Positions 9,025 to 37,237 of a DNA stretch of 64,000 nt are shown here, in pieces; the first letter of the stretch is position 1; every line of letters starts with the position of its first letter. Origin of the DNA: an uncultured Spirochaetota bacterium (lineage in GTDB: Bacteria > Spirochaetota > Spirochaetia > SZUA-6 > Fen-1364); assembly GCA_963845325.1 (NCBI GenBank), contig CAWJRT010000013.1, positions 128,614 to 192,613 on the forward strand, written 5' to 3'. Position numbers and translations under genes: made by a program. Under the pieces are notes generated by a model. That model was not told where the DNA came from and did no database searches. It was given only the letters and a program-made list of their open reading frames with translations.

Positions 9025-9052
9025 CGCGCCAATCTCTGAATTCGCCGCCTCG

Positions 9053-19423: not shown

Positions 19424-19648
19424 GTGCCGCAGCGCACCATCATGGCAGACGAGGAGTTCTTCCGACACATCCACCGCATGAGCCGCCTCACGCGGGCCCT
19501 CAAGGCGCCGCTGGACGCCTGGGAGGCGGACGTCCTGAAGCGGACCATGGAGACTTTCGGGTCCGGGATTGCCCGCGCGGTGCGCCGCCACCTCGACGAA
19601 GCATTCATTGAGCTTGTCACGAGTATGGACCAGGGCATCAGGAACTGA
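19424..19648 (+). CDS. hypothetical protein
   Basis: 74-aa ORF (GTG at 19424, ATG at 19442) with helical-looking sequence MADEEFFRHIHRMSRLTRALKAPLDAWEADVLKRTMETF. No family recognised, and it sits in a decayed region. Confidence 0.25.
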   Translation: MPQRTIMADEEFFRHIHRMSRLTRALKAPLDAWEADVLKRTMETFGSGIARAVRRHLDEAFIELVTSMDQGIRN

Positions 19649-19656
19649 AGCCTTTT

Positions 19657-19679
19657 CCATGTGCATAGCCCGCACATGG
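19657..19679. promoter_or_regulatory. perfect 8-bp inverted repeat CCATGTGC-N7-GCACATGG (hairpin or candidate enhancer-binding site)
   Basis: Lies 9 nt after the stop of ORF 19424..19648 and about 175-195 bp upstream of the sigma-54-type promoter. No U-tract follows it. Confidence 0.3.
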
Positions 19680-19851
19680 GAGATCTGTACACAAGAATCC
19701 GCTGCCTGTTTCTTCGCCGGCCGCAAGTGGTTCCAGTTCGTTTTCGTAGTTTAGAGCTCGGGTCATTTATAATTCATTATTGAATAATGCTTTGGTATTT
19801 CTTGTTTCAACATTTTTCCATACTGCACTTTATAGAGAAAAAAATCACGAT

Positions 19852-19868
19852 TGGCATGGCTATTGCAA
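19852..19868 (+). promoter_or_regulatory. sigma-54 (RpoN) type promoter, TGGCAT-N5-TTGCA
   Basis: TGGCATGGCTATTGCA matches the -24 GG / -12 GC consensus TGGCAC-N5-TTGCW with correct spacing. It sits in an AT-rich tract about 20 nt upstream of the first gene of the hydrogenase island, which implies a very short leader. Confidence 0.5.
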
Positions 19869-19886
19869 CTAAAATATCAGATCGTC

Positions 19887-20245
19887 ATGAACCTGAGCGA
19901 GCTTTCGCAAAAAATCAATGCGCGCTTCTATCCCAGCACGGGACGTTACACGGAAGCCCGGACCGTCCATGCTGCAGACACGATGAGCAGCCTGATCGCC
20001 AACGCGTCCCGCGACACGCTGCTCGTGACAAGCCTGAACAACAACCAGTTGATTCGCGTTGCCGAGCTGATGGATGCTCCAGGGCTGTGCCTCGTCGGCG
20101 GCGCGCAGCCAAGCCCGGAGCTGCTGGACCGGGCGCGCGAGGCGGGGGCGGCGATCATGGTGTCTCCTTGCGGCCTCGACGAAACCCGGCGGCTGCTGGA
20201 GGAATGCCTCGCCGGCTCCCCGGTCAGAGTGGAGGCCGGGCATGA
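19887..20245 (+). CDS. DRTGG domain protein (1 apparent frameshift near the 3' end)
   Basis: MNLSELSQKINARFY...HAADTMSSLIANASRDTLLVTSLNNNQLIRVAELMDAPGLCLVGG. An ATGA overlap with the next gene (20242-20245) exists only in a shifted frame. Confidence 0.7.
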
Positions 20246-20668
20246 TCACCATGAGCTACCGCATTTCGGGGGCGATTTCGACACCGGCGGTCTTGCAACG
20301 CGCCAGGCTCAAGGAGCAGCTTGCCCGGATCGGCGTCGGCGCGGCGCGCGATGCGGCGGGCCATGATCGCCTCGTACGAGGCGGAGATGAACGTGGTCAT
20401 CCACGCCCGCACCGGCACGCTCTGGGCCCGGCTGGACTCAGGGAAGCTGGACCTGGAGATTGCCGACGAGGGCCCCGGCATCCCGAACGTGGAGCTGGCT
20501 CTCCGTGAAGGCTGGTCCACCGCGTCCGAGAAGGCGCGCGAGATGGGATTCGGCGCCGGGATGGGCCTCCCGAATATCCGCAGGAACAGCGACCTGTTCG
20601 ACATCGAGACCCGGGTCGGCCGGGGCACGCGCATCCGCTCGACGATCCTCCTGGACGCGGTGCGATGA
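20242..20668 (+). CDS. anti-sigma-factor-like Ser/Thr kinase / HATPase_c protein, interrupted by about 3 apparent frameshifts
   Basis: MITMSYRISG + GDFDTGGLAT + LKEQLARIGVG + AMIASYEAEMNVVIHARTGTLWARL...EIADEGPGIPNVELALREGWST...GFGAGMGLPNI, spread over three frames within the first 110 nt. Confidence 0.75.
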
Positions 20669-21843
20669 GCACCGAGCTGCCGGTTCTGGCACGCGGCGCC
20701 GCGGAGACCGTCGGGCGGTCGCCGCGGGAGCACTGCCGCAAGTGCCTGCGCTGCATCTTTGCCTGCCCGACGGGGGCCCTGCGCGTGCACGCCGCGGGAC
20801 CCGATATCCGGGCCGGGCTCTGTGTCGGCTGCACCGCCTGTTTCGGCGAATGCCGGTCCGGGGTCTACGGAATTCGTGAGCCGGGAGGACGCAGCGGACG
20901 ATTTTCCCGGCGCTCCCCGAAGGAGCCGTGCTCGTCATCCCCGGGGGCTTTCTCTCCAGCATTTCCCTCGGCGGCTCGGACCGTGTTCTGGCGGCGCTCT
21001 CGCTCGTGCGGATTCTCCGAAGTGCGGCTCCTGGAGGAATGGACGGAGGCGCTTGCGAGCGGAGGCGCGCGCGGCCGCCGTTTCGGGGCAGCGCCGCCCT
21101 GCCCCTCATCCCGCCTGTGTGCCCGGCCGTTGTCGCGCTCGTGGAGAGCAGGTTTCCCTCGCTGATTCCCAACCTCGGTCCGTGGCTCTCCCCGATCGAA
21201 GCTGCCGGCGAGGAGTTCCCCTTGCGGCACGTGTTCCTCGTGGCGGCGTGCGCGGCGCAGTACGAGTCTGCGCAAAGTGCGAGCCTCACCGACCGGCTCA
21301 CCGTTCTCAGCCCGACACCGCTTGCGGAGGCCGTGCGCGGCTGCCTGGCTTCCCGCGCAGACGCCGGCCGGCTGCCGCTGCGCACGTCCGCGCGGCGAGC
21401 CCGAGAGGGCGCCCGGGGAGCTTGCGGTGAGCGGTGTGCGGCACGTGATGCGCGTGCTTGCCATGGCCGAGGCAGGCGCACTCCCCGGTGTCACCCTCCT
21501 CGACCTCTCGCTCTGCGAGCAGGGTGCTCGGGCTCGCCGCTGCTGTCCGCCGAGCCCGGCCTCGGCGCTGCAGGCGCCGGCACGATGGCGGAGAGTGACG
21601 CGGCGGCGGTCCGCCGGGCCCGGCCCTATGCGCAGCGCCCCGGCGTAGCGGCTGGATCCGGACATGGGCGCGGCCATCCGGGCGCTGGGGAGAATCGACG
21701 CGCTGACGCGCGCCCTGCCCGGCCGCGACTGCGGGGCGTGCGGGGCTCCTTCCTGCGCGCTCTTTGCGGAAGACGTGATCCTCGGCAGGGCGGACACTTC
21801 GACATGCCCGCATGCCTCCCCTTCCATGGAGGAAACAGGATGA
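20665..21843 (+). CDS. HydS-like [FeFe]-hydrogenase homologue (ferredoxin + H-domain-like + C-terminal Fe-S domain), at least 5 apparent frameshifts
   Basis: N-terminal 2x4Fe-4S (CRKCLRCIFACP, CVGCTACFGEC). Degenerate H-cluster motifs PVCPAVV, AACAAQYE and LCEQGCSGSP. C-terminal LPGRDCGACGAPSCALFAEDV (RnfB-type FeS domain). ATGA overlaps at both ends. Confidence 0.7.
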
Positions 21844-22212
21844 CCCTTGGGAAGATCGTTTCGTCTCTCGGCCTGGAGGTTCTTACGCCCGAGCTTTCCG
21901 TCAACGGCGGCGCCGAGGTGACGCGGGGGCACGCCTCGGACCTGCTGAGCGACGTGCTGGCCAACGCGCCTTCCGGCGGAGTTCTCCTGACGATCCAGGT
22001 GCACATGAACGTCATTGCCGTGGCCCTGCACGCGGGGCTGGCGGCGGTGGTGTTCACCCAGGGGATGCGGCCCGAGGAGAGGCGTGCGGCTGAAGGCCGT
22101 GCAGGAGGGCCTGCCCCTCCTGGCCACGGCCGAATCCACCTTCGACCTGGCGGGCCGGCTGTACGCGCTGGGGCTGAGGGGAAGGGGTGACCGGGGTGAG
22201 GCGGCAGCGTGA
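21840..22212 (+). CDS. DRTGG domain protein (1 apparent frameshift)
   Basis: MTLGKIVSSLGLEVLTPEL...GHASDLLSDVLANAPSGGVLLTIQVHMNVIAVALHAGLAAVVFTQG, then ORF 22015..22212 (AVQEGLPLLATAESTFDLAGRLYALGL). Confidence 0.75.
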
Positions 22213-22987
22213 ATGACGCTGGCCGCGGACATGCACATCCACACGGTGCTCTCGCCCTGCGCCTCCCGCGAGATGACGCCGCCGGCCATCGTGCGGGAAG
22301 CGGCGGAAAAGGGCATTGCGATGATCGCCGTGTGTGACCACAACACCGCGGGCAACGTGCGCGCTGTCGTGGAAGCCGCCGCCGCCGCTCCCGGACGGCC
22401 CCGCCGTCATTGCCGGCATCGAGATCACCACCGTGGAAGAAGTGCACGTCCTGGGCTGGTTCCGCAGCCCCGCGGACGCGTGCGCCGTTTCCGACGAGGT
22501 CGCCGCGGGCCTCCCGCCCTGGCGGCCGCTGGCGCTGCGGACGGCGCGCCTCCGCGGCTTCAGCTCTCCGCGAGCCTGAGCAGCAGCTCATGGACGCCGA
22601 CGGGAACGAGACGGGGATCGAGACCCGGATGCTGGCCGCGGCAAGCAGGTTCACGCTGTCGGAGGCGGTGGACCTCATCCACCGGCACGGCGGGCTGGCG
22701 GTGGCCGCCCACGTGGACCGCAGGAGCTTCAGCGTGCCGGGGCAGCTCGGATTCATCCCGGACGGACGTCCCGTTCGACGCGCTGGAAATCTCCGCGGCC
22801 GGGGCCGCCCGCGGAAGGGCGGCGGATTTCGCTGCGCACGGGCTTCCCCTGCTCAGCTCCTCCGACTGCCACTTCCTGGAGGACATCGGCACCGGCTTCA
22901 CGGTGCTGGAGGTCGCGGAGCCGGCGTTCGACGAGATCGCGCAAAGCGCTGGGAATGGTCGAGGGCAGGGGGTGCGCGATTGCGTGA
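22213..22987 (+). CDS. PHP-domain (histidinol-phosphatase-like) metal-dependent phosphoesterase, at least 3 apparent frameshifts
   Basis: MTLAADMHIHTVLSPCASREMTPPAIVREAAEKGIAMIAVCDHNT; IAGIEITTVEEVHVLGWF; LIHRHGGLAVAAHVDR; LLSSSDCHFLEDIGTGFTVLE. The 3' end is uncertain. Confidence 0.7.
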
Positions 22988-23527
22988 GATCAGCCTGCAC
23001 ATCCTGGACCTGATCGAGAACGCCATCCGGGCCGGCGCGACCGTCATCGCCGTTGCCGTGGAGGAGGAGCCCGAGCAGGACCTGCTGTGCATCGCCGTGG
23101 AGGACAACGGCCCGGGCCTCGCCGTTGCGGCGGACACCGCCGCCGATCCCTTCTTCACCACCAAGGAAGGGAAGAAGACGGGGCTGGGGCTGAGCCTGCT
23201 GAAGTTCCGCGCCGAGCAGGCCGGGGGATGCTTCCGCCTGGAGAGGTCCTGCCTGGGCGGGCTGGCCGTGCGGGCCACGATGCCCCTGTCCCACGTGGAC
23301 AGGAGCCCGCTGGGCGACCTGGCGGCCACGCTGGCCTCCGTGGTGTGCACGAGCCCGGGCGTGGAGCTGCGCTCCCGGCTGCGCGTGGGCAGCAGGGAGT
23401 GGCGCGTGAGCACGGCCGAGATCTTGCGGGGGCTGCCCGTGGGCGGCCGCAGCGAGATCGCCGTGGCGCGGCGCATGAAAGAGCGAATCGCGGAGGGGCT
23501 CACGGCCCTCCAGTGTCTCGGAATAAG
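22980..23527 (+). CDS. histidine-kinase-like ATPase (HATPase_c) protein without a DHp domain
   Basis: TTG at 22980 opens LREISLHILDLIENAIRAGATVIAVAVEEE...IAVEDNGPGL...FFTTKEGKKTGLGLSLL (N and G boxes). The end is uncertain: the frame stays open into the next gene, and a shifted TAA lies at 23525-23527. Confidence 0.65.
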
Positions 23528-23562
23528 CGGAATGAACCAGACGACAGGAAGGGAGAAGCGGC

Positions 23563-24197
23563 ATGACCGAGGTTCAGCAAAACGACCGCCTGCGCGTGCG
23601 GCGGCGAGGCAACCGAGCAGCAGCTCATGGAGCGGCTCGACGAGGTTCTCACGGAGTACCAGGGAAAGCCGGGTGCGCTGATCCCCGTGCTGCAGATCGC
23701 CCAGGGCATCTTCGGCTACCTGCCCGGAGCGTGATGAAGCGCGTGGCGCTTCGGCTCGGCAAGTCCTACAGCGAGGTGGCGGGCGTCGTGGGCTTCTACT
23801 CCTTCTTCTCCACCGTTCCGCGGGGAAAGCACCTGGTGCGGGTGTGCCTGGGCACCGCCTGCTACGTGCGCGGCGGCAAGCAGGTCCTGGAGGCCTGCCG
23901 GCAGGAGCTGGGCATCGACGTGGGGGGCACAACCGCGGACGGCCTGTTCACCCTCGAAGTGGCCCGGTGCTTCGGCGCCTGCGGCCTGGCCCCCACGATC
24001 ATGATCGACGAGGACGTGCACCAGCGGGTGAAGCCGCCGAAGCTGCGCGCGCTGTTCTGCCGCGTACCGCGACGGGCCGGCGCCGAGGAACCGTCGGCAC
24101 GCGAAGAAGCAGACGGCGGCGAAGAAGCCGCCCAGGAAGACGGCGCCGGCCGTCCCGCAAAGGCACGGTGCGCAGGGAAAGGGTGGTGGCGAAATGA
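23563..24197 (+). CDS. hydC: NuoE-like [2Fe-2S] subunit of NAD(P)-linked [FeFe]-hydrogenase, at least 2 apparent frameshifts
   Basis: GALIPVLQIAQGIFGYLP, VCLGTACYVRGGKQVLEA and ARCFGACGLAPTIMIDE (the four Cys of the NuoE cluster). A basic C-terminal tail ends with an ATGA overlap at 24194-24197 in a shifted frame. AGGAAGGGAG lies upstream of the ATG. Confidence 0.75.
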
Positions 24198-24577
24198 GCG
24201 AAAAGATCAGCAGTCCCCAGGACCTCCTGAAGCTGCGCGACGCGGCCCGAAGCCAGGTCGACCTGCGCGGGGGACGTGAAGGAAGCGCAGGTCGTGGTGC
24301 ACATGGGCACGTGCGGAATTGCCGCGGGCGCGCGCGACATCGTCGCGGAGCTCGTGGCCGAGCTGGACAGCCGGGGCGTGCAGACGGTGACCGTGCGGCA
24401 GTCCGGTTGCATCGGTCTGTGCGACCAGGAGCCCATGCTCACCTACACCGACAAGACCGGGCGCAACTTCCTCTACGTGAACCTGACGCGGGAGAAGGTG
24501 CGGCGAGATGGTGGAGCGCCACATCGTCGAAGGGCTAGCCCGTGGAGCAGTACATCATGAAAGGAGAGGCGACATGA
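24194..24577 (+). CDS. thioredoxin-like [2Fe-2S] ferredoxin domain protein, 2 apparent frameshifts
   Basis: MSEKISSPQDLLKLRDAARSQVDLRG + QVVVHMGTCGIAAGARDIV...VRQSGCIGLCDQEPML + MVERHIVEG...[16 protein letters not shown] overlap with the next gene. Confidence 0.7.
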
Positions 24578-27500
24578 GCCGATCGAGATGCAATGTCCTG
24601 ATCTGCACCGGCGGCGGCTGCGTGGCCTCCGGCGCCCTTGAGCTGAGCGCGGCCATGCGGGCCGCCATCAGAAGCACGGCCTGGAGGGCGAGGTGCAGGT
24701 GTTCGAGACCGGCTGCCTCGGCCCCTGCGCGGCGGGCCCGGTGGCCGTCGTCCATCCCGACGGGATCCTCTACCAGAATCTCAAGCCCGCCGACGCGGAG
24801 CGCATCGCCGAGGAGCACCTGCTGAAGGGCAGGATCGTCGAAGGAGCTCGCGTACGAGACAGCGTGCCGGAGAGCATGGAGGCGCTGGGCCTGCAGGAGA
24901 TCCCGTTCTTCCGCAAGCAGGTGAAGATCGTCCTGCGCAACTGCGGGCTCATCGATCCGCTGAAGATCGAGGAGTACATCGCCCGGGACGGCTACATGGC
25001 CCTGGCGAAGGTGCTCACCGAGATGACGCCCGAACAGGTGATCGATGAGGTGAAGAAGTCCGGCCTGCGCGGCAGGGGCGGCGCGGGATTCTCCACGGGC
25101 ATGAAGTGGGAGCTCTGCCGCAAGGCGCCGGGCACGGAGAAGTTCACGCTCTGCAACGCGGACGAGGGAGACCCGGGCGCGTTCATGGACAGGAGCGTGC
25201 TGGAAGGTGATCCGCACAGCCTCATCGAGGCCATGACCATCGCCGGCTACGCCATCGGCTCCTCGCAGGGATACGTCTACGTGCGCGCCGAGTACCCCCT
25301 GGCCGTGGAACGGCTCACCCGGCCATCGAGCACGCGCGCGAGCGCGGCCTGCTTGGCAAGAACATCATGGGCACCAGCCCACAGCTTCGACCTGGAGATC
25401 CGGATGGGGTCAGGCGCATTCGTCTGCGGAGAAGAGACGGCGCTCATGACCTCAATCGAGGGCAACCGGGGCGAGCCGCGGCCCCGGCCGCCCTTCCCCG
25501 CGTTCAAGGGGCTCTGGGGAAAGCCGAGCCTCCTGAACAACGTGGAGACCTATGCCGCGATCCCGGCGATCATCCTGAAAGGTTCCGGCTGGTACGCCTC
25601 CATGGGAACCGCGAAGAGCAAGGGCACGAAGGTGTTCGCCCTGGCCGGCGCCGTGAAGAACACGGGCCTCGTGGAGATCCCCATCGGCATGCCGCTGGGC
25701 GAGCTGGTCTTCGACATCGGCGGCGGAATGAGGGAAGGCAAGACCTTCAAGGCCGCGCAGATCGGCGGGACCATCGGGCGGCTGCATCCCGCGGCACCAC
25801 CTGAACGTGCCCGTGGACTACGAATCCCTCGCCGAGCTGGGCGCCATCATGGGCTCGGGCGGCCTCATCGTCATGGACGAGGACACCTGCATGGTGGACA
25901 TGTCCCGGTTCTTCCTCGAGTTCGTGCAGGACGAATCCTGCGGCAAGTGCACGCCCTGCCGGGTGGGCACGAAGCGGATGCTGGAAATCCTGGACCGCAT
26001 CTGCGAGGGCAGGGGGCAGGAGGGAGACATCGAGCGCCTGATCGACTCGGGCAACACGATCAAGGACACGGCCCTCTGCGGGCTCGGCCAGACAGCGCCC
26101 AACCCCGTCCTCTCTGCAATCCGCCATTTCCGCGAAGAGTTCGTCGAGCACATCAGGGACCACAAATGCCGCGCTGGGCGTGTGCCCCGAGCTGGTGCGC
26201 GCCCCGTGCCAGAACGCGTGCCCGGCGGGCGTGGACGTGCCGGGCTTCGTGAGCCTGATCGGGGAGAAGCGCTACGACGAGGCGCTGACCCTGCACCGGG
26301 AGAGGAACCCGCTCGCGGCAATCTGCTCCCGCGTGTGCTTCCATCCCTGCGAGAGCAAGTGCCGGCGTTCAACGCTGGACGATCCGCTTTCCATCAGGTC
26401 GCTGAAGCGCTTCATGGTGGAGCAGGAGAAAGAGTTCAACCTTCCGGCGATGACCCTGGACGGCGCCAACGCAAAGAGGAAGGTGGCCGTCGTGGGCGCG
26501 GGCCCCGCGGGACTTTCCTGCGCGTACTTCCTGGCGCGGCTGGGCTACCGGCCGACGGTTTTCGAGGCTGCCTCGGAGCCCGGCGGGATGCTCGTGCAGG
26601 CCATACCCGGCCTACCGGCTGCCGCGCGACATTCTGCGCCGCGAGATCGGCATGATCGAAAAGCTCGGCGTGAAGATCAAGACGAACAAGACGCTCGGCA
26701 GGGACTTCACCCTTTCGAGCATGAAGGAGATGGGCTTCGAGGCGGTGTTCGTCGCCGTTGGCGCGCCGAAGGGCGCCGGCCTGGGAATGAAAGGGGACGA
26801 GGCGGCGGGCGTGACGGAGGCCATCGACTTCCTGCGGCAGTACAACCTCACGGGCAAGGTGCCCGTGGGAAAGAACGTGGTCGTCGTGGGCGGCGGCAAT
26901 GCGGCAATCGACGCGGCGCGCACGGCAATTCGGCTGGGCGCTTCCTCCGTCACGGTGGCGTACCGTCGGACCCGCGCGGAGATGCCCGGCCTACATGGAA
27001 GAGGTGGAGGAGGCCGAGCGCGAGGGAGTGAAATTCCAGTTCCTCGTTTCGCCGATGGACCTCATGCACGAGAAGGGGAAGCTGGCGACGGTGAAAATGC
27101 GCCGCATGGGGCTGGGCGATTTCGACCGGACGGGCCGGCGCAAACCCGTGGCTGACCCGCAGAGCGACTTCGACATGCCGGGCAGACCAGCTCATCGCCG
27201 CGGTGGGCCAGGCGCTCGATGCCGAACGGATCTTCAACGGCGTATCGCTGAAGCTCAACGACCGTGAGTTCATTGCGGTGAACCCGGTGAACGGGCAGGC
27301 CTCCGAGGAATGGGTGTTTGCAGGAGGCGATGCGGTAAGCGGCCCCTCGTCTGTCATCGAAGCAATTGCCGCCGGAGAAAAGGCGGCGGCGGGGATGCAC
27401 GCTTTCCTCGCCGGCGCGGGCGACATCCCGTGGCGGTCCTCGAAGGTCGTGGACACTTTCTTCGATCCGGATGCCGACCCCGCGATGGGCGGGCGTCCCG

Positions 27501-27640
27501 GGCTGAAGATGATCCCCGTATCGCGGCGCAGGGGTTTCGCAGAGGTGGAGACCACCTGGTCATCCGCCGTTGCCCTGGCCGAGACGAAGCGCTGCCTTCG
27601 CTGCGACTACCGCGAGCCGGCCGCGCCGGCCGTCCACTAG
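24574..27640 (+). CDS. hydB: NuoF-like flavoprotein fused to a GltD/NfnB-like NAD(P)H:FAD oxidoreductase module, about 8 apparent frameshifts
   Basis: N-terminal 2Fe-2S thioredoxin-like domain ([10 protein letters not shown]...[10 protein letters not shown]). NuoF core ([49 protein letters not shown]). [10 protein letters not shown] then continues across one indel (about 26170), with no stop, into [24 protein letters not shown]. After that come [28 protein letters not shown] and [10 protein letters not shown] (the GltD/NfnB pattern). AAAGGAGAGG lies upstream of ATG 24574. Confidence 0.75.
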
Positions 27641-27653
27641 AGAGGAGAAAGAA

Positions 27654-29423
27654 ATGCCATCCCTGACCATAGACAACAAGACGATCAGCGTGACGGACGG
27701 AACGAGCCTGCTCGAGGCCGCCCGGCAGGCCGGCGTCCAGGTTCCCAGCCTCTGTTACCTGAAAAAGGTGCAGGCCATCGGCTCCTGCCGCGTATGCCTG
27801 GTGGAGGTGGAGGGCGCAAAGACCCTCACGGCCTCCTGCGTCACCCCTTGCTTCGAGGGCATGAAAGTGCACACCAACTCGGCGCGGGTCCGCACGGCCC
27901 GCAAGGCGGTCGTCGAGCTGATCCTCTCGGACCACGAGGGGGACTGCCAGACCTGCGACAGGAACGGCGATTGCGAGCTGCAGTCCGTTGCGCGCGACCT
28001 GGGCATCCGGGAGATCACCTACGCCGGCGGCAAGAGCGTCCGGCGCAAGGACACCAGCACCCCGGCCCTCGTGCGCGACACGGCCAAGTGCATCCTCTGC
28101 CGGAGATGCGTCACCGTCTGCGGCCAGACACAGGGCGTGGCCGCCATTTTCCCGCAGAAGCGCGGGTTCCAGTCCGTCATCGGGCCGGCCTTCGCTTCCG
28201 ACCTTGCGGACGTCGTGTGCGTGCAGTGCGGGCAGTGCGCCGCGGTGTGCCCCGTGGGAGCCATCGGAGAGAAGGACGAGGTCGCGAAGGTCTGGGCCGC
28301 CATCGACGACCCGACGAAGACCGTGCTTGTGCAGACCGCCCCGGCAATCCGTGCCGCGCTTGGGGAATGCTTCGGGTTCCCGCCGGGGACCCTGGTCACC
28401 GGGCAAGATGGTCACTGCCCTGCGGCTTATGGGGTTCGACAGGATCTTCGACACGAACTTCACCGCGGACCTCACCATCATGGAGGAAGGCACGGAGCTC
28501 TTGACCCGGCTGAAGAAGGCGCTCGTGGATGGTCAGCAGGTGCCTCTCCCCTTGTTCACCAGCTGCTCGCCGGGCTGGATCCGCTACGCGGAGCATTTCT
28601 ACCCTGAAATCCTCCCCAACATCTCCACGTGCAAGTCGCCTCAGCAGATGTTCGGCGCCATTGCCAAGACCTACTACGCGGAGAAGATCGGAAAGAAGCC
28701 GGAAGACATCTTCGTCGTTTCGGTGATGCCCTGCACGGCGAAAAAGTACGAATCCCAGCGTCCCGAAATGTATTCCAGCGGCGTGCGCGACGTCGATGTC
28801 GTCCTTACCACCCGGGAGCTCGGCCGCATGATCCGCGAGGCCGGCATCAACTTCCCGGGCTTCCGGACGGCCAGATGGACAGCATCCTCGGTGCCTCCTC
28901 GGGTGCCGCGGACATCTTTGCCAACACCGGCGGCGTCATGGAGGCGGCCCTGCGGACGGTGTACGAGATCGTTACCGGCCGCCAGCTGCCTTTCGACAAC
29001 CTGCACGTTGCTCCAGTGGCGGGGCTCGCGGGGGTCAAGGAAGCGGCGATCAAGATCGAGGGCACGGTGCGGGAATGGGCGTTCCTCGAAGGGGTCACCG
29101 TGAAGGTGGCCGTTGCCCATGGGCTGGGCAACGCGCGGCTCCTCATCGAGAGGATCAAGGCCGGTGAGCAATACCATTTCGTGGAAGTCATGACCTGCCC
29201 CGGAGGCTGCATCGGCGGCGGCGGCCAGCCGCGCGTCACGACGGACGAAGTGCGCCTTGCGCGCATCGCGGCCATCTACAAGGAGGACGAGGGCAAGTCC
29301 ATCCGCAAGTCCCACAACAACCCCGAGGTGGCGGCCATCTACGAGGAGTACCTCAAGAAGCCGCTCGGGGAGAAGTCGCACCACCTCCTGCACACGAAAT
29401 ACACAGCGCGGGAGAGGGTGTAG
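27654..29423 (+). CDS. hydA: [FeFe]-hydrogenase catalytic subunit (M3-type HydA), 2 apparent frameshifts
   Basis: 2Fe-2S domain, HEGDCQTCDRNGDC, CILCRRCVTVC and CVQCGQCAAVCP. H-cluster motifs FTSCSPGW (L1 variant), MPCTAKKYE (L2) and EVMTCPGGCIGGGGQP (L3). Pieces lie in ORFs 27570..28607, 27988..29103 and 28629..29423. AGAGGAGAAAGAA lies upstream of the ATG. Confidence 0.85.
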
Positions 29424-29450
29424 GACGGGAGACGGGACGCGGGGGCCGCA

Positions 29451-31601
29451 ATGGGCATAGTCTCGACGATTCCCGAGAAATGCAGGCGCTGCTACGCGTG
29501 CGTGCGCGAATGCCCGGTAAAGGCCATCAAGGTCATCGCCGGGCAGGCCACGGTCATCGAGGAGCAGTGCGTGGCGTGCGGGAACTGCGTCAAGGTCTGC
29601 ACGCAGAAGGCCAAGCGTATCGAGGATGCCACGATGCTGGTGGGCCGGCTGCTGGAGGGGGAACAGCACCGCCGGTGCCCAATCCGCCGGGTACGTCGGT
29701 GCGGAATCCGCCGGGTACGTCGGTGCCCAATCCGCCGGGTACGTCGGTGCGGTGTTTGCGATCCTTGCGCCGTCGTTCCCGGTCGCTTTTCCCGATGTGC
29801 CTCCTGGAAAGATCGTCGGTGCGCTGCGCAGCCTGGGGTTTGCCCAGGTGTGGGAGGTGGCCTTCGGCGCGGAGCTGGTGAGCCGCGAGTACGCCCGGCT
29901 TGCGCGCGAGGCCATCAGGGGCGGCCAGACCGTCGTGAGCACGCCCTGCCCGGCCATTGTCTCGTATGTGCAGAAATACCTGCCCCGGCTCCGGGGGTCG
30001 CTTGCCCGCGTGGTCTCTCCGATGATCGCCACGGCACGGGCGATCAAGGACAGGCACGGCGCGGGGGTGAGGATCGTCTTCATCGGCCCATGCATTGCAA
30101 AGAAGGCGGAGATCAAGGACCCGTTCGTGCAGGGGACCGTGGACGCGGTGCTCACCTACGAGGAGCTCCTCACGATGTTCGCGGCAGCCGGGATATCGCC
30201 ACAGGCGGAAGATGCCTGCGAGTTCGACGGGCCGTCGGCGTACCTGGGCCGGTCCATCCCGATTCCGGGCGGCCTCTTGAGGGCCGCGGGAATCGATTCG
30301 GACATACTCCAGAACAACGTGCTCGTTACCGAGGGCAAGGACAGGGTGCTGCCGGTGTTTCGCGAGCTCGCGGATGGGAAGAGCAAGGCACGAGTCCTGG
30401 ACGTGCTGTTCTGCGAAGGCTGCATCAACGGCCCGAAGATGACCAACGCCCTGAGCGTGTTCGCGCGCAAGGAGATGCTCACTGACCACATCAACGAGCT
30501 GAACGTGGCCATGGGCGGGCAGAACATCCAGGAAGCGCTCGGCGAGTTTGACCGGGTCGATCTCGCCGGGGATTCAGCGAGGATGCGGTGTTCCTTCCGC
30601 AGCCCACCGAAGGAGAGATTGCAGTGGCGCTTCGGAGGATGAGGAAGTTCGGCCCCGAGGATCAGCTGAACTGCGGATCCTGCGGCTATCCCTCCTGCCG
30701 CGACAAGGCAATTGCCGTGTGCCAGGGCTTTGCGGAGGTGAGCATGTGCCTGCCCTACCTCGTGGAGGAGCTGGAGGGGACTCTCTCCCTGACGCAGGAC
30801 AAGCTCGTTCAGACCGAGAGGCTTGCCTCCATGGGACAGATATCCGCGGGAGTTGCGCACGAGATCAACAATCCCCTGTCTACGATCCTCCTGTACTCGC
30901 ACATGCTGCTGAAGGCCCACCGCCAGGGCGATCCCGAGTCGGAAGACATCCAGATGATCGTTTCCGAGGCCGACAGGTGCCGCACGATCATGCGCGGCCT
31001 CCTGGACTTCGCGCGGCAGTCGCGTGTTGTCAAGACGCCCACGGACCTCGGCCGCCTGGTGCGTGAGCTGGCCGATGCCATGAACGTGAAGCTGGATCCC
31101 GCCGTGGTCCGCGTGCGCTGCGAGATTGCCCCGGGCCTGCCGCCGCTCATGCTGGACTCGGACCAGGTCCGCCAGATGCTGCTGAACTTCGTGCAGAACG
31201 GGATCGACGCCGTGGAGGACCGGGTTGCAGCGGACGCAGGCGGACCTGACGCCATCGGCCCTGAACGGAGCGGCCCCGGGGAGGTCGTGATCAGCGCGCT
31301 TCTCTCAACCTCGGCCGACATGCTGCACCTGCGCGTGAGCGACACCGGATCCGGCATGCCGCCCGAAGTCATCAAGGATATTTTCACGCCCTTCTATACC
31401 ACGAAGCAGCTTGGAAAGGGCACCGGAATGGGGTTGTCCATCGTGTACGGCGTGGTGAAAATGCACGCAGGGGACATTGCCGTGGACAGCGAGGTGGGCC
31501 GGGGGACGTCGTTCCTCGTGCGCATCCCCGTCGAACAGGGAGGTGAGCAATGGCGAGAACCGTTCTGCTGGTTGATGACGACGCGGATTTCGTGGAGATG
31601 A
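29451..31601 (+). CDS. HydS-like sensory [FeFe]-hydrogenase domain fused to a histidine kinase, 2 apparent frameshifts
   Basis: CRRCYACVRECP and CVACGNCVKVC. H-domain-like motifs STPCPAIV, GPCIAKKAE and FCEGCINGP. FeS domain NCGSCGYPSCRDKA. HisKA ISAGVAHEINNPLS. HATPase LLNFVQNGIDA, DTGSGMP, GTGMGLSIV. Frame changes are at the G5 run near 29656-29660 and near 30565. Confidence 0.8.
29679..29750 (+). repeat. tandem repeat, 3 x 24 nt, core AATCCGCCGGGTACGTCGG (inside the HydS-kinase gene)
   Basis: Units at 29679-29702, 29703-29726 and 29727-29750, each NN+AATCCGCCGGGTACGTCGGTGC (NN = CC, GG, CC). The gene reads them as QSAGYVGA, ESAGYVGA, QSAGYVGA. Removing them joins GCCGGTGC|GGTGTTTGCG, giving ...STAGAVFAILAPSF. 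Confidence 0.9.
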
Positions 31602-31978
31602 ACCGGATGCTCCTCGAACAGAACGGGTATTCCGTTCGCGTGGCATATTCCGGGCGCCAATGCCTGGCGGAAGTCGCCGCATGCCGGCCCGACATCATCA
31701 TCCTGGACATGGTCATGGAAAGCCGGGAAGACGGTTTCGAGGTGTCACGGGAGCTGCGCAACTCCGAGCACACGAAGTCCATCCCCCTCGTGATGATCAC
31801 CTCGGTGAACGACAGCATTCCCTTCCACCTGGAGCCGGACCGCACCTGGCTTCCCGTGGACGCCCTGCTGGAGAAACCCGTTGAGCCGCAGCTGCTGCTG
31901 ACGGTCGTGGACACGGCGCTGAAGCCAAAGACGGCGCAGGCGCGTCCGGTGAATGACGCGCAGGCGCGTCCGGGCTGA
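31550..31978 (+). CDS. stand-alone response-regulator receiver (CheY-like)
   Basis: MARTVLLVDDDADFVEMNRMLL...PDIIILDMVMESREDG...PLVMITS...EKP. No output domain. GGAGG lies upstream of the ATG. Confidence 0.85.
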   Translation: MARTVLLVDDDADFVEMNRMLLEQNGYSVRVAYSGRQCLAEVAACRPDIIILDMVMESREDGFEVSRELRNSEHTKSIPLVMITSVNDSIPFHLEPDRTWLPVDALLEKPVEPQLLLTVVDTALKPKTAQARPVNDAQARPG

Positions 31979-31983
31979 GCTCT

Positions 31984-32388
31984 ATGCCTGCCCCCCTCGT
32001 CTACCTTGTCGATGACGACAGGGACTTTCTCGAAATGGAAGCGGCCATTCTTTCCGCCGGGGGCTACCGCACGAAGAGCTTTTCCGACGCGCGCGAGGCC
32101 CTTGCTGCACTCGCGTCGGCCGACGGGGAACAGCGGCCATCCCTCCTGGTGACCGACCTGATGATGAAGTCTCTCGATGCCGGCTTCACCTTCGCCCGTG
32201 CCGTCCGCTCCGATCCACGCCTGTCGGACATCCCGATCGTCATCGTCTCCGCGGTGGCAAGCCAGAAGGGATTCGACTTCCGGCCGCGAACGGCGGATGA
32301 CCTTGCCGCGATGAACGCCGAGGCCTTCTTCGACAAGCCCGTCCCGCCGGCAGCGTTCCTGGCAAAGGTGAAGGAGCTCGCGCCGTGA
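31984..32388 (+). CDS. stand-alone response-regulator receiver (CheY-like)
   Basis: MPAPLVYLVDDDRDFLEM...SLLVTDLMMKSLDAG...PIVIVSA...FDKP. No output domain. GTGA overlap with the next gene. Confidence 0.85.
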   Translation: MPAPLVYLVDDDRDFLEMEAAILSAGGYRTKSFSDAREALAALASADGEQRPSLLVTDLMMKSLDAGFTFARAVRSDPRLSDIPIVIVSAVASQKGFDFRPRTADDLAAMNAEAFFDKPVPPAAFLAKVKELAP

Positions 32389-33965
32389 TCCAGCCAGCGG
32401 CGCCAAATCCGCCGGGTACGTCGGCGCAGAATCCGCCGGGTACGTCGGCACAGAATCCGCCGGGTACGTCGGCGCCAAATCCGCCGGGTACGTCGGCGCG
32501 CATCCTCGTGGTTGACGACGAGCTGGGCGTGCGTGAAGGCTGCCGCAAGATCCTCGCTGCCGAGGGCTACGATGTGCTCACCGCCGGCGACGGCAAGGCC
32601 GGGCTCGAGCAGCTGATCGAGCGCGGGCCTTTCGCCGTCCTGCTGGTTGACCTGCAGATGCCCCGGATGTCCGGCCTGGAGCTGATCCAGGAGGCCAGGA
32701 GCCGGGACTCCGACATCGTACCCATCATCATCACCGCCCACGCAACGCTGGACACAGCCGTGGAGGGGACACGGCAGGGAGCTTACAGCTACATCCCCAA
32801 GCCGTTCACCCCGGACGAGCTGCTGCTGGCCATCAAGAACGGACTGGAGAAAAGGGCACTGTCCATCGAGGCGCGTCGGCTCCGCGAGGAGCGGGAAAAA
32901 CGCCTTCTGGAGGTCGCCTCCGAGCGCTCGCGGAGCAACACGATCATCTCGGCGATGACGGACGGGATCCTCGTGATCAACATGGAGAAGCTGGTGGTGC
33001 TGCGCAACAACGCGGCAGCCCGCATTCTTCCTGACTGCGCCCACCGGCCCATCCCGTTCCCGCTGGAGGAGATCGAGAGCCCCGACGTTCGCGAGATCGT
33101 GAATATCGTCATCGACTCTCCCGGCGGCTTCATGATCCTCTCCCGCCAGATCCCCCTGGGAGAGTTCACCTACATGGTGAACGTCAGCCCGATCATCGAG
33201 CCCGGCGGGGAAACATCCGGGGCCGTCGCCGTGTTCAGCGACGTCACGGAGCTGAAGAAGCTGGACACGGCGAAATCCATGTTCGTCTCCCTGGTTGCGC
33301 ACGAGGTCAAGAGCCCGCTCGCCGCCACGGAGGGGTGGCTCAATCTCGTGCTCAGCGGAATGCTGAAGACGAACCCGGCGGAAGAGCGTCACATGCTGGA
33401 ACGGGCTCTGCTGCGCGTGAGGACCCTTCGCGGTATGGTGAACGAGCTGATCAGCCTCACGGCGATCCAGACGGGCAATTTTTCCCTGAAAAGGGCGCCC
33501 GTGGTGGTGGCGGAAGTCGTGGAAGAAGTCGTGGCTGCCGGGCAGGGAAAAGGCGGAGGAGCATCGCATTTCAGTGGAAGTCACCGATTGCGCGCCCGGC
33601 ACGCGCGTGCTTGCCGACCGTGACGCCCTGTCCATGATCTGCTCCAACCTGGTGGAGAACGCGGTCAAGTACACGCGGGACGGAGGGCATGTGGTTGTGC
33701 GCATGTGCCGCGAAGGGATGTACGTGACCGTGGCGGTGAAGGATGACGGAATCGGGATGTCCGACGGAGGACGCCGCGCAGGATCTTTGAGGAGTTCTAC
33801 CGGGCCAGAAACGAGCAGACCGCCAGCATCCCCGGCACGGGCCTGGGCCTCAGCCTTGTGAAGCGGCTCACAGAGCTGCACGAAGGAACGGTGAGCGTCT
33901 CCTCCCTGTTCGGGGCGGGCAGCGAGTTTATTGTAAAACTTCCGCTGATCGAGCCGCAGGGCTGA
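32385..33965 (+). CDS. hybrid receiver-PAS-histidine kinase, 2 apparent frameshifts
   Basis: GTG start, then the repeat-encoded PNPPGTSA-type octapeptides. Then RILVVDDELGV...VLLVDLQMPRMSG...PIIITAH...PKPF, a PAS-like segment, H-box SMFVSLVAHEVKSPLAA, LVENAVKYT, DDGIGM and GTGLGLSLVKRL. Ends at TGA 33965. Confidence 0.8.
32404..32499 (+). repeat. tandem repeat, 4 x 24 nt, same core AATCCGCCGGGTACGTCGG (codons 7-38 of the receiver-kinase gene)
   Basis: Units NN+AATCCGCCGGGTACGTCGGCGC (NN = CA, AG, AG, CA; unit 2 ends GGCAC). Read as PNPPGTSA, QNPPGTSA, QNPPGTSA, PNPPGTSA. Removal restores GTG ATC CAG CCA GCG GCG CGC ATC CTC GTG GTT GAC GAC. Confidence 0.9.
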
Positions 33966-33976
33966 TCCGGCCGAAC

Positions 33977-35815
33977 ATGACGAAGCCAGCCGCGGACTCT
34001 CGCGAGATCAGCCGGGCCCTGAAACACCATTTCGGGTTCACCGCGTTCCGCCCGCACCAGAAGGAGATCGTCGAAGCCGTCCTCCAGGGGCGTGATGTCT
34101 TTGCCGCACTTCCAACGGGCGGCGGCAAATCCCTCTGCTACCAGCTTCCTGCCGTCATGCACAGCGGCCTCACACTGGTGGTGAGCCCCCTCATCTCCCT
34201 TATGAAGGACCAGGTGGACGGGGCGCGGGAAGAAGGAATCTCCGCGGCGCTGCTCAACAGCACCCTGTCCGCCGACGAGGCAAAGAGCACGTGGCGCGCA
34301 CTGTCCGCCGGCAGCATTCGTCTCCTCTACGCCTCCCCCGAGCGGTTGTCCATTCCGGCCTTCCGCTCCGCGCTCTCCCGTTTCGGGCTCGGGCTCATCG
34401 CCGTTGACGAGGCGCACTGCATCTCGGAGTGGGGCCACGAGTTCCGCCCCGACTACCGGTCGCTGGGCCTCCTGCGTGCCGAGTTTCCCGATGTGCCTAT
34501 TGCTGCATTCACGGCAACGGCCACACCGCAGGTCCAGGAAGATATCGTACGGCTGCTCGCGCTGAAGACGCCCTATATCGTCCGGGCAAGCTTCGACCGG
34601 CCGGAAATCTTCTACCGGGTGCGCGCGCGGGAAGGCGACGGCGACGCACAGGTTCTTCAGTTCGTCCGGAAGCATGCGGCACAGCCGGGCATCGTGTACC
34701 GGGGCACGCGCAAGGCGGTTGAACGAACCGCGGACTTCCTCGCTGCCCGTGGGATTGAAGCGGTGGCCTACCACGCCGGGCTGGAGGATGCACTCCGCCG
34801 CTCCCGGCAGGACGCGTTCGTCCGGGATGAGGCGGCCGTGGTGGTTGCAACCATTGCCTTCGGAATGGGTATCGACAAGCCGAACGTCCGCTGGGTTGTT
34901 CACGCCGACCTTCCGCGCAGCGTGGAGGGCTACTACCAGGAAACCGGCAGGGCTGCCCGGGACGGCGATCATGCCGAGGCCTTGCTCCTGTACGGGTCAG
35001 GCGATATCGCTTCCATCCGATGGCATATCGAAAGGATGGAGAACCCGGAAGCGGCCCATCGCGCGGAGGCACGGCTTCGGGAAATCCTGCAGTATGCGGA
35101 ATCCTCGGTGTGCCGCCGGACGCAGCTCCTGGGGCACTTCGCCGAACACCATCCCGGCACCTGCGGACGCTGCGACGTGTGCGCCGGCGAGGTGACGCGG
35201 GAAGACCTCACCGAGTCCGCGCGGAAGCTCCTCTCCGCGGTGGTGCGGACGGGGGAACGCTTCGGCGCGCACCACCTCGTGGACATCCTGACAGGCACCT
35301 TGACGGACAAGGTGCAGGAGCGCGGGCACCACGATCTCCCCACGTGGGGCATCGGCAGGGAACATGACCGTGACTGGTGGCTCGCGCTGGCCCGGGACCT
35401 GGATGCGGCCGGAATCCTGGTTCGGGGAGAGGGACGCACCGCGGGGTACAGCCTTTCCGGGAAGGGGCGCCTTCTGCTGAGGGGGAAAGAGACATTCCTG
35501 GGAACGAGGAATACCGGGAGAAACGGCGCCCGGGATCGACCAGGGCAGGGCTCCCTCGACCGGCTCGACCTGCCCGACGGACCTGCGCAGGAGGGGCTCT
35601 TCCAGGCTCTCCGGCAGGTGAGGAAGCGCATTGCCGAAGCCCGGCGGGTGCCACCGTACATCATCTTCAGCGACAAGACCCTCCGGGCAATGGCCCGGAG
35701 CAGGCCGACCGACCCGGCTGGATTTCTCCGATGCCCCGGTGTCGGTGATGCAAAGCTCGAGGCCTACGGGGCGCTCTTCCTGGAAGCAGTCCGGGAGTTT
35801 CTCGCTCGCGGCTAG
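33977..35815 (+). CDS. recQ: ATP-dependent DNA helicase RecQ
   Basis: Intact 612 aa. FRPHQKEIV, LPTGGGKSLCYQLPA, DEAHCISEWGHEFRPDY, the zinc-binding region CRR...CGRCDVC, and a C-terminal HRDC domain (RVPPYIIFSDKTLRAMA). Confidence 0.9.
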   Translation: MTKPAADSREISRALKHHFGFTAFRPHQKEIVEAVLQGRDVFAALPTGGGKSLCYQLPAVMHSGLTLVVSPLISLMKDQVDGAREEGISAALLNSTLSADEAKSTWRALSAGSIRLLYASPERLSIPAFRSALSRFGLGLIAVDEAHCISEWGHEFRPDYRSLGLLRAEFPDVPIAAFTATATPQVQEDIVRLLALKTPYIVRASFDRPEIFYRVRAREGDGDAQVLQFVRKHAAQPGIVYRGTRKAVERTADFLAARGIEAVAYHAGLEDALRRSRQDAFVRDEAAVVVATIAFGMGIDKPNVRWVVHADLPRSVEGYYQETGRAARDGDHAEALLLYGSGDIASIRWHIERMENPEAAHRAEARLREILQYAESSVCRRTQLLGHFAEHHPGTCGRCDVCAGEVTREDLTESARKLLSAVVRTGERFGAHHLVDILTGTLTDKVQERGHHDLPTWGIGREHDRDWWLALARDLDAAGILVRGEGRTAGYSLSGKGRLLLRGKETFLGTRNTGRNGARDRPGQGSLDRLDLPDGPAQEGLFQALRQVRKRIAEARRVPPYIIFSDKTLRAMARSRPTDPAGFLRCPGVGDAKLEAYGALFLEAVREFLARG

Positions 35816-35834
35816 GCCGCACCACGGCGGGCCC

Positions 35835-37237
35835 CTAGTCGGGCAGCGTGTCCCCCGACGCCTGGCGCAGGGCGTATTCGCTCAATACTTCCTTGTACAT
35901 CGCGGCGAGGTTGGAAATATTTGCCGTTTCCAGGGCGGTCTGCGCGTCCAGGTACTCCAGGTTGCTGATGACGCCGATGTCGTACTGGACCTTTGCCACT
36001 TCCACCATCTGGCGCGCCTGGTCCAGCGCTCCCGCGGAGATCTCGACCTGCTGGCGCGCGGCCCTGCACATCCTGCGCCGCCTGGAGGACCTGGGTCGTC
36101 GCGTTCAGCCGTGCGGCAGATGTGTTTTCTCTTGCGCCGTCAAGCTTCTTCTGCGCTTCGTCCTGCAGGCGTGCCTGGAGGAAACCCTGGAAGATGGGAA
36201 CGTTCACCTGCACCCCGGCAACCCAGTTGAAGACGGGCACATTGATGTCAGGCAGCGCGCCATTCTTGTATCCCACGGAGGCGTGGGCCGAAACGGTGGG
36301 CCAGGGCCCGAGCGACGCCAGCCGCTGGCTGAGGTCCGCGGCGCTCTCTGCCTCGACTGCCTGGCGCACATCGGTCCTCTTCTGCAGCGCCGATTCCACC
36401 AGCGACGCGTCGTCGGCGGGCGCGGCGCCGGGATCGAAACTGCCGCTCAGCGCGATCGGGGCGGACGGGGGCAAGACCGGTGAGCTGGCGCAGCGCGATC
36501 TTCTGCTTCTGGAACTGGCTCTCGACATCCGTGCGCTGGCTCTGCAGCGCCGCCATGCGGACCTGGGTGCCCAGGTCTTCCAGCCGGGTCGCGGACCCCG
36601 TGTCCTCCCTCACCTGGATCACGCGCAGGTGCTCCTGGAGGTTCTGGTACTGCTCATCCAGCGCCTTGCCCTGCTCCTGGAGGAAGAGCGCGGTGTAGAA
36701 CACCTGCACCGCCTGGTAGGAGATCGCGGTCGTCACCTGGTCCACGCCGATCCGCGCCGAGGCAAGCCCGCTCTGCGCAAGCTTGACCTGCACGTCCCTC
36801 TTTCCGAACTGGGTGATCACCTGGTTGAGGCCGATATTGAAGTCCCAGTTGTTGTCGGGAACCAGCGAGAATGGGGCGGAGAGGAGCGCCTGGTACTGGG
36901 ACGGGACCTGCGATGACAGGAAGGGCGGCAGCACGGAGGAGATGGCGAAGCTCTCGTCCGAGAGCCGGTTGTACGATGCCGTCCCGCTCACCATGGGGTA
37001 GTACGAGCTTTGCGCCTCCCCCACCCGCGCGCGCGCCGCTTCCACCGCGGCCAGCGCCTGGCGGATCAGGGGCTGGTTTGCCTTTGCGCGTGACACCGCC
37101 TGCTCCACGGTGAGGGTCACCGCGTTCGCATCTGCCGCCGTGTCCCGCGGAGAGGGGACTGAGAGAAACCAGGAGGAGCGCAGCGGCCGATCGGGACCAC
37201 CCGCGCCCTCATCAGCGAGCAGGAAGCTCCCGATCAT
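35835..37237 (-). CDS. TolC-family outer-membrane efflux protein, at least 2 apparent frameshifts
   Basis: ATGA overlap with the adaptor stop at 37234-37237. TolC-like repeats (LTVEQAVSRAKANQPLIRQALAAVEAARARVGEAQSSYYP...; ...LDAQTALETANISNLAAMYKEVLSEYALRQASG). Pieces lie in ORFs 36248..39160, 35812..36528 and 35835..36071. Confidence 0.75.

Follow-up and report, generated by a model that had tools for sequence, protein, structure and literature searches.

[FeFe]-hydrogenases linked to histidine kinases are already catalogued from genomes. HydDB has a group C1 described as "histidine kinase-linked (putative)" (PMC5037454). Proteins of group C that contain HATPase or histidine kinase domains and are encoded behind bfuA in Hydrogenedentota and Caldithrix abyssi have been named "BfuT"; those of sub-type V clusters are filed as C3, and others under C1 (PMC11406978). 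TmHydS of Thermotoga maritima, a group C protein of architecture M2f, is described as a putative sensory [FeFe]-hydrogenase (PMC8163306). Of the two HydS proteins characterised so far, neither TmHydS nor TamHydS of Thermoanaerobacter mathranii has an assayable output. Here we analyse a four-gene cassette that follows a hydA gene in an uncultured member of the Spirochaetota. It occupies positions 29451-33965, on the + strand, of a high-GC stretch of 64,000 nt (hereafter the window; 128614-192613 of contig C13 in the metagenome-assembled genome (MAG) G000), and its genes, which overlap or lie at most 6 nt apart, encode a sensor kinase with a hydrogenase-like H-domain, two stand-alone receivers and a second kinase (Table 1). 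An earlier note on this DNA had held kinase-linked sensory hydrogenases to be a recognised class, and the two catalogues bear this out: the cassette is a real member of that class, and its frame breaks are artefactual. We consider it probable that the cassette encodes an intact sensor kinase, receivers and a kinase 2 relay at the 3' end of a ~14 kb hydrogenase island under a sigma-54 promoter, and that an activator encoded in the same window is the candidate output.

The nearest relatives of the window are uncultured Spirochaetota MAGs of fen, peat and soil. Pfam was run on the frame-pieces of the genes in the cassette, together with a three-frame translation, and the intact orthologues at the related locus L025 were also scanned by domain search. 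The orthologue set comprised 69 single open reading frame (ORF) sensor kinases taken from 80 related loci, and residue invariance was scored over 59 orthologues with a mean identity of 45%. Gene 1 begins 27 nt behind hydA (29423 to 29451). The earlier note had described its product as carrying ferredoxin cysteines, an H-domain with four candidate cluster cysteines, an iron-sulfur (FeS) domain and a complete HisKA/HATPase kinase, and the Pfam matches and motif positions agree on each of these. The kinase boxes (AHEINNPL, NFVQNGIDA, DTGSGM and GKGTGMGL) give a full H-box, N, G1 and G2 set, with Pfam scores above cut-off. Intact ORFs at the 69 related loci run from 511 to 747 aa, and to at least 640 aa in all but two. 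Gene 1 is predicted to be one intact cytoplasmic sensor kinase of ~720 aa.

The H-domain aligns with solved [FeFe]-hydrogenases (7qv7_D and 8a6t_A), the four cysteines falling in register, and the earlier identification holds at the level of single residues. In CpI numbering, STPCPA replaces the proton-relay Cys299 by Pro and retains Cys300; GPCIAKKAE has Gly for Met353 and retains Cys355, Lys358 and Glu361; FCEGCINGP has Leu for Met497 and retains Cys499 and Cys503. Since these traits match groups C and D as given in PMC8163306, the H-domain is, by its residues, of the putatively sensory group C (HydS-like) kind; the assignment uses the residue criteria listed there and not placement in a tree. 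The four H-cluster cysteines are invariant in the 59 orthologues, as are the eight ferredoxin and four C-terminal cysteines, the phospho-His and the N, G1 and G2 boxes, and Lys358 and Glu361 are nearly so. The protein thus unites H-domain homology with four cysteines, the losses of Cys299, Met353 and Met497, the cluster complement and a group A operon neighbour. The intact hydA orthologue of L025 scores 881.9 bits (cut-off 765) against the NCBIfam model "NADH-dependent [FeFe] hydrogenase, group A6". Architecture M2f has a PAS domain after the C-terminal cluster. Here HisKA lies ~36 residues past the last cysteine, and no PAS match was obtained in gene 1 with Pfam or in the scan of the L025 orthologue, so that by its domains gene 1 is a kinase-fused variety of HydS and not M2f proper. 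For the sensor kinase and the receivers, no NCBIfam model was matched at its cut-off. The genome carries hydF and hydG, which encode maturases and are both frame-broken.

An AlphaFold2 (AF2) model of the L025 sensor kinase, computed as a monomer, has a mean predicted local distance difference test score of 85. Its first ~400 residues resemble [FeFe]-hydrogenases (Foldseek matches to CbA5H, DdH, HydABC and CpI, with E down to 6.5e-20), and the remainder resembles the kinase core of ZraS, with a template modelling score of 0.77 normalised by ZraS length. No solved HydS-type structure stood among the Protein Data Bank matches of the H-domain in the alignment and fold searches. In this model a single helix (residues 406-468) runs from just past the last cluster cysteine, Cys405, through the phospho-His, His449. 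The spacing from the last cluster cysteine to the histidine is 39, 46, 53 or 60 residues in 64 of 80 proteins and 43 or 64 in the other 16, and that in the window, 36 residues (30750-30857), is one heptad below the 43 of all same-genus relatives. Such whole-heptad changes in length are as expected for a rigid coiled-coil signalling helix. We infer that the H-cluster feeds the C-terminal cluster, whose state may be relayed mechanically to the dimerisation and histidine phosphotransfer (HisKA) bundle.

The three genes that follow all contain receivers with the phospho-acceptor Asp context, as the earlier note had stated. Each receiver has the DD, D, T-or-S and K set, and the Response_reg matches span profile positions 1-109 or 1-110 of 111. 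RR1 and RR2 consist of a receiver domain only, and kinase 2 has a full set of boxes (AHEVKSPL, NLVENAVKY, DDGIGM, GTGLGL), with Pfam scores for the kinase that likewise exceed the cut-off. RR1 orthologues are restricted to the spirochaete clade, and the RR2 clade takes in the sole receiver of Planctomycetota loci. The best NCBIfam similarities of RR1 and RR2 are sub-threshold and include DivK-like single-domain receivers, among others. A receiver tree had too few columns to resolve relationships beyond orthologue groups, and placed the NtrC receiver on a very long branch.

The earlier note had called it unusual for a relay to end in a second kinase, and here comparison with relatives gives the opposite result. 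Counting only those related loci whose downstream sequence extends for 3.8 kb or more (n = 64), the kinase is fused to the H-domain in all 64 and a REC-PAS (receiver-PAS) kinase gene lies downstream in all 64; stand-alone receivers lie between the two kinases in 61 (one or two in 60, three in one), and hydA is directly upstream in 50. The hosts belong to Spirochaetota, Planctomycetota, Hydrogenedentota, Verrucomicrobiota, Ignavibacteria, Bacteroidota, KSB1, Calditrichota, Chloroflexota, Gemmatimonadota and others. The second-kinase relay is the invariant layout of the subfamily, not an oddity. What recurs beyond the cassette depends on the phylum: a second hydCBA operon, DRTGG/PHP/ATPase genes, or hydG. 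Across ~77 related loci from many phyla no DNA-binding or enzymatic output gene is conserved beside it, and a DNA-binding gene directly behind the cassette, which would have countered the earlier note's account, was looked for and does not recur. A second, paralogous HydS-kinase/REC-PAS-kinase cassette, 45-50% identical, is present in the same genome (C21:41400-44900; L113), also at L112 and L114, and several relatives carry one; in relatives it lies behind a second hydCBA with an unfused HydB.

In the assembly as given, genes 1 and 4 are not continuous frames. Gene 1 passes from frame 0 to frame 1 near 29666-29672 and back near 30564-30572; the earlier note had seen both changes (~29668 and 30565) and allowed that they might split the sensor from the kinase. 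Gene 4 changes frame near 33540 and 33763-33777, which that note did not mention. Were these changes real, both kinase genes would be pseudogenes, or ferredoxin, H-domain and kinase would be made as separate proteins, and the changes do stand in the sequence as assembled. At the site near 29668 reads speak neither for nor against the change: 29610-29669 is uncovered by related contigs of two metagenome runs, only the dispersed repeat described below being covered, which weighs against our reading of gene 1 as a single frame. Yet all the larger neighbouring genes are broken alike, as are rpoN, hydF, hydG and the NtrC-type gene, elsewhere in the genome and in part essential; every inspected gene of the genome is affected except the two short receiver genes. 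Orthologous sensor kinase frames in same-genus genomes are open over 670-750 aa, and in L028 and L033 the linker repeat is read through without a frame break. Short-read contigs restore the frame at two sites, one 92% identical having one additional base behind 30564 and one 99% identical having one base fewer at 33540. Against two short-read relatives, 1-nt indels occur at ~1 per kb in hydC, hydB-gltD, hydA and genes 1 and 4, and 8 of the 21 fall no further than 4 nt from CCGG, compared with a background of 7.4% (p = 7e-5). The out-of-frame pieces are conserved over their full length with no other decay. Finally, completeness is only 69% for a 4.9-Mb genome in just 35 contigs, and few-contig relatives have the same deficit. 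Given the open orthologues, indel rate, CCGG bias, low completeness, short-read contigs and conserved pieces, the frame changes near 29668, 30565, 33540 and ~33770 are best explained as consensus indels of a long-read assembly that leave the sensor undivided, and real frame changes are very improbable. Programmed frameshifting or a truly split sensor was likewise considered and rejected, the gene being one ORF at 69 loci and unrelated genes being broken genome-wide.

Clustering at CCGG is what systematic long-read errors produce when a motif is modified. It suggests that methylated CCGG misled base-calling, and hence that the organism may have an active CCGG-specific methyltransferase. CCGG-linked indels are found window-wide, for example at 26610, 26989, 27182, 28400, 30565 and 33540.

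Upstream of the cassette the island comprises a head of five genes followed by hydC, hydB and hydA. A GltD-like NAD(P)H oxidoreductase module is joined to the NuoF-like HydB (24276-27640), and this fusion is a single ORF of ~1200 aa in relatives, e.g. L019 4213-7824. The window has a near-consensus sigma-54 promoter ahead of the first island gene, and a strict match stands at that place here and in 7/7 relatives examined. Upstream of it is a conserved element, found at the same distance in 7 loci and occurring once in the 4.9-Mb genome, which is probably an activator binding site, as predicted from sequence; being unique, it does not allow a regulon to be defined. Scans gave no sigma-70-like promoter from 19500 to 37000 and no convincing terminator in the island, a weak indication that the island is one transcription unit. 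The window also encodes, further upstream, a PAS kinase and an NtrC-type activator. Intact orthologues of the latter in L105 and L109 have GETGxGK, a GSFTGA or GAYTGA (GAFTGA-like) loop and a C-terminal helix-turn-helix (HTH). The elements of a sigma-54 operon are thus found together: a conserved promoter with correct spacing, rpoN in the genome, and an activator with AAA+ domain, loop and HTH.

The PAS kinase adjoins the NtrC-type gene in 6/7 relatives examined, the pair lying 1.5-14 kb upstream of the island. Its orthologue is present in 21/21 relatives with the type-1 island and in 1/19 without it, that one a fragmented assembly (Fisher p = 2e-10 over 40 related genomes, phylogeny ignored). 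By its co-occurrence with the island and its position nearby, the PAS-kinase/NtrC-type pair is likely to be what activates it. The H-box type HE(I/L)N(N/Q)PL is common to kinase 1 and the kinase of the pair, and a link from the HydS-kinase relay to the pair can be proposed. The earlier note had found no output domain in the relay; this stands for the four genes but not for the island, with its sigma-54 promoter, upstream site and activator pair.

One explanation for these observations is the following mechanism, in which H2 as the signal, the direction and order of phosphotransfer and any link between relay and activator are our inference. H2 made or used by the adjacent HydABC would react at a slow H-cluster that lacks the proton relay, and the C-terminal cluster would shift in redox state or ligation. 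As the last cysteine of that cluster would cap the long phospho-His helix, the rigid, heptad-phased helix could switch autophosphorylation. The phosphoryl group would then pass to the stand-alone receiver(s), to the N-terminal receiver of kinase 2, or to both; kinase 2 would be gated by its receiver, with a second input possible through the PAS-like region. The output would lie outside the four genes, where the best candidate in the window is the co-inherited PAS-kinase/NtrC-type activator, which might act at the upstream site and the sigma-54 promoter and so close a feedback loop on hydrogenase expression. In its most specific form, an H2-gated cascade with a cluster as helix cap that converges on the NtrC-type activator, an independent [FeFe] counterpart of HoxBC-HoxJ-HoxA, the scheme is speculative and we regard it as unlikely to hold in full.

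This interpretation must be made cautiously, as several observations weigh against it. In the model, AF2 confidence is low for helix residues 427-441, and the model is that of a monomer. The PAS match of kinase 2 (19.9 bits) is below the Pfam cut-off of 22.6. We found no biochemistry on any kinase-fused HydS in the literature searched. Strict sigma-54 promoters occur at only 5/80 loci of other lineages, a rarity from which it follows that a sigma-54 output is not general for the cassette. The activator pair has its own kinase and co-occurs with the whole island and not with the relay specifically, and the genome encodes 13 sigma-54 activators. One may postulate, as a possibility that we rank clearly below the sigma-54 island reading, a self-contained non-transcriptional relay in which phosphorylated receivers bind proteins (for example HydABC, the DRTGG/ATPase/PHP proteins or kinase 2) and tune hydrogenase activity instead of expression, the sigma-54 promoter and NtrC-type protein forming a separate control. 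The scarcity of such promoters outside the spirochaete lineage and the kinase adjoining the NtrC-type gene would fit this scenario, as would the DivK-like similarity of RR1 and RR2 and the lack of a conserved DNA-binding or enzymatic gene beside the cassette. The interactions it calls for are putative only, however, and the intact catalytic boxes of the full second kinase imply that there is a further phospho-acceptor. Response regulators unlinked to a kinase, moreover, often partner orphan kinases.

An alternative that concerns the input, and which we also think improbable, is that the protein senses the cellular redox state instead of H2, through ferredoxin/NADH pressure or cluster damage by O2 or other oxidants, with the H-domain as a scaffold from which a working [2Fe] subsite is perhaps missing. 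Sixteen cluster cysteines do make for a redox-active protein, and the proton relay is lost; H-cluster binding by some group C1 proteins has also been doubted on the basis of their motifs by authors working on Hydrogenedentota (PMC11406978), which is a further point against the H2-sensing scheme. The four H-cluster ligands are nevertheless invariant, and Lys358 and Glu361 nearly so, across sequences as diverged as those compared here, and this idea is disfavoured because such conservation is hard to explain without the cofactor. The maturases HydF and HydG are encoded in the genome, and in the related HydS of both T. maritima and T. mathranii an H-cluster is assembled and the protein reacts with H2 (PMC8163306). 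We retain the intact sensor kinase and relay in a sigma-54 island as the probable reading.

Some further features of the window are of note (Table 1). The linker between ferredoxin and H-domain contains a 24-bp tandem repeat that was absent from the earlier account, and a second array lies in the N-terminal extension of gene 4. In L028 and L033 the repeat occupies the same linker site in frame, as (KSAGYVGx)x3-4; in L031 the site is taken by another 24-bp repeat, (ECAASRRR)x6, and in L025 there is no repeat. This variation among relatives points to a tolerated, variable inter-domain octapeptide linker, and not to a cause of frameshifting. The repeat core AATCCGCCGGGTACGTCGG occurs at 16 places in the genome (e.g. 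C3:174208, C13:236128 and C21:378663), in 1-4 copies per site and often in open frames as xSAGYVGA or PNPPGTSA, and it is abundant in varied contexts of two metagenome runs. The Fer4/H-domain linker is a hot spot for 24-bp repeats, and a related peptide, DPPGASATNPP, is found in the receiver loop of the L105 NtrC-type protein. The window encodes three H-domain proteins, one of them a second HydS-like gene at ~20665-22190. In hydA (~28558-28578) TSCSPGW stands in place of the canonical TSCCPGW, as it does in the L025 orthologue.

Table 1 Positions in the window of the cassette, its domains and motifs, and the associated island, promoter, activator and repeat features.
Feature	Position	Strand	Basis and remarks
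Sensor kinase (gene 1)	29451-31601	+	Frames 0, 1, 0 in assembly; Pfam, motifs, 69 orthologous ORFs
Fer4 piece	29451-29672	+	Pfam E 1.6e-12; two CxxCxxCxxxCP motifs
Fe_hyd_lg_C piece	29749-30597	+	Pfam E 4e-48; profile positions 3-245 of 245
H-domain	29749-30565	+	Pfam; residue-level alignment to 7qv7_D and 8a6t_A
STPCPA motif	29938-29955	+	H-domain
GPCIAKKAE motif	30085-30111	+	H-domain
FCEGCINGP motif	30409-30435	+	H-domain
FeS PF04060, HisKA and HATPase_c piece	30588-31598	+	Pfam E 2e-9, 3e-13 and 2.9e-25
Cx2Cx4Cx16C cluster domain	30672-30749	+	PF04060 match; motif
Phospho-His codon of sensor kinase	30858-30860	+	HisKA H-box
Receiver RR1 (gene 2)	31550-31978	+	Response_reg only (piece 31550-31975); Asp codon 31706-31708
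Receiver RR2 (gene 3)	31984-32388	+	Response_reg only (piece 31984-32385); Asp codon 32155-32157
Kinase 2 (gene 4)	32385-33965	+	REC, PAS-like, HisKA, HATPase; frames 0, 1, 0 in assembly
Kinase 2 Response_reg, PAS, HisKA piece	32499-33566	+	Response_reg E 4e-26
Kinase 2 receiver Asp codon	32649-32651	+	Motif
Kinase 2 phospho-His codon	33300-33302	+	HisKA
Kinase 2 HATPase_c halves	33574-33798; 33786-33962	+	Pfam
Island head: DRTGG, small HATPase, second HydS-like, PHP, small ATPase-like gene	19887-23566	+	Pfam; synteny with relatives
hydC (NuoE-like), hydB-GltD-like, hydA	23563-29423	+	tblastn synteny; all frame-broken
Sigma-54 promoter (predicted) TGGCAT-N5-TTGCA	19852-19867	+	20 nt before DRTGG, first island gene
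Conserved upstream element TGTGCA..CCCATGGG..TGTGCAC	19657-19692		~190 bp before promoter
PAS-HisKA-HATPase kinase, H-box SHELNQPL	8936-10228	+	Pfam
NtrC-type activator: REC, sigma-54 AAA+ (PF00158), HTH_8	10225-11628	+	Pfam on pieces; frame-broken
24-bp tandem repeat, 3.2 copies	29673-29750	+	Ferredoxin/H-domain linker; (AQSAGYVG)x3 in H-domain frame
24-bp repeat, 4.2 copies	32398-32499	+	N-terminal extension of gene 4

The catalogued C1 and BfuT proteins are like gene 1 in that an H-domain is joined to a kinase and encoded just past the catalytic subunit of a bifurcating-type hydABC/bfuABC cluster, and a regulatory, H2-sensing role has been presumed for them, as here. The downstream receiver(s) and REC-PAS kinase do not appear in PMC5037454 or PMC11406978, and the term "response regulator" is absent from the text of the latter; nor did we find a discussion in the literature of receivers beside a kinase-fused HydS. 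This locus also differs from them in its Spirochaetota host, the HydB-GltD-like fusion, the octapeptide linker, and the sigma-54 promoter with its NtrC-type pair. What appears to be new, as read from sequence, is that a relay of three or four genes is invariant, that cysteine and histidine are linked in heptad phase, that the island has a sigma-54 promoter with an upstream site and a candidate activator, and that a 24-bp repeat encodes an in-frame octapeptide linker. Otherwise there is little to be gained from this one copy, since the class is catalogued and the broken frames are artefacts. The subfamily carries a built-in canonical histidine kinase, so that an effect of H2 could be assayed by autophosphorylation and phosphotransfer; synteny across phyla names the partners to test, and the lineage-specific promoter, site and activator are testable too.

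Among characterised proteins, TmHydS shares the N-terminal 2x[4Fe-4S] region, the missing Cys299 relay, Gly for Met353, the Cx2Cx4Cx16C motif and a place beside a group A HydABC (PMC8163306), but in it a PAS domain follows the cluster domain, where HisKA/HATPase follows here, and Met497 is replaced by Ser and not by Leu. TamHydS (group D, M2e) is alike in its cluster complement, in Leu for Met497 and in lying next to a bifurcating hydrogenase; it differs in having no fused signalling domain and in Ser for Met353, where Gly stands here. TamHydS is flanked by a small kinase-like ATPase, and in this it resembles the second HydS-like gene of the window. Multi-kinase relays without an output of their own are found in RedCDEF of Myxococcus xanthus and DivJ/PleC-DivK-DivL-CckA of Caulobacter. 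As in our cassette, two kinases are combined with single-domain receivers, and the operon contains no DNA-binding domain; the receivers of those relays act as connectors or phosphate sinks. The homology to these systems is generic to two-component proteins, and their inputs are others. Functionally nearest are the [NiFe] systems HoxBC-HoxJ-HoxA of Cupriavidus necator and HupUV-HupT-HupR of Rhodobacter capsulatus (HydDB group 2b), in which a slow hydrogenase serves as H2 sensor and signals through a histidine kinase to an NtrC-family regulator of hydrogenase genes, with HoxA and sigma-54 as parts of the [NiFe] circuit. These belong to an unrelated family with an unrelated metal centre, their sensor and kinase are separate proteins, and they have neither stand-alone receivers nor a second kinase, whereas the cassette described here joins sensor and kinase in one predicted polypeptide and adds both.

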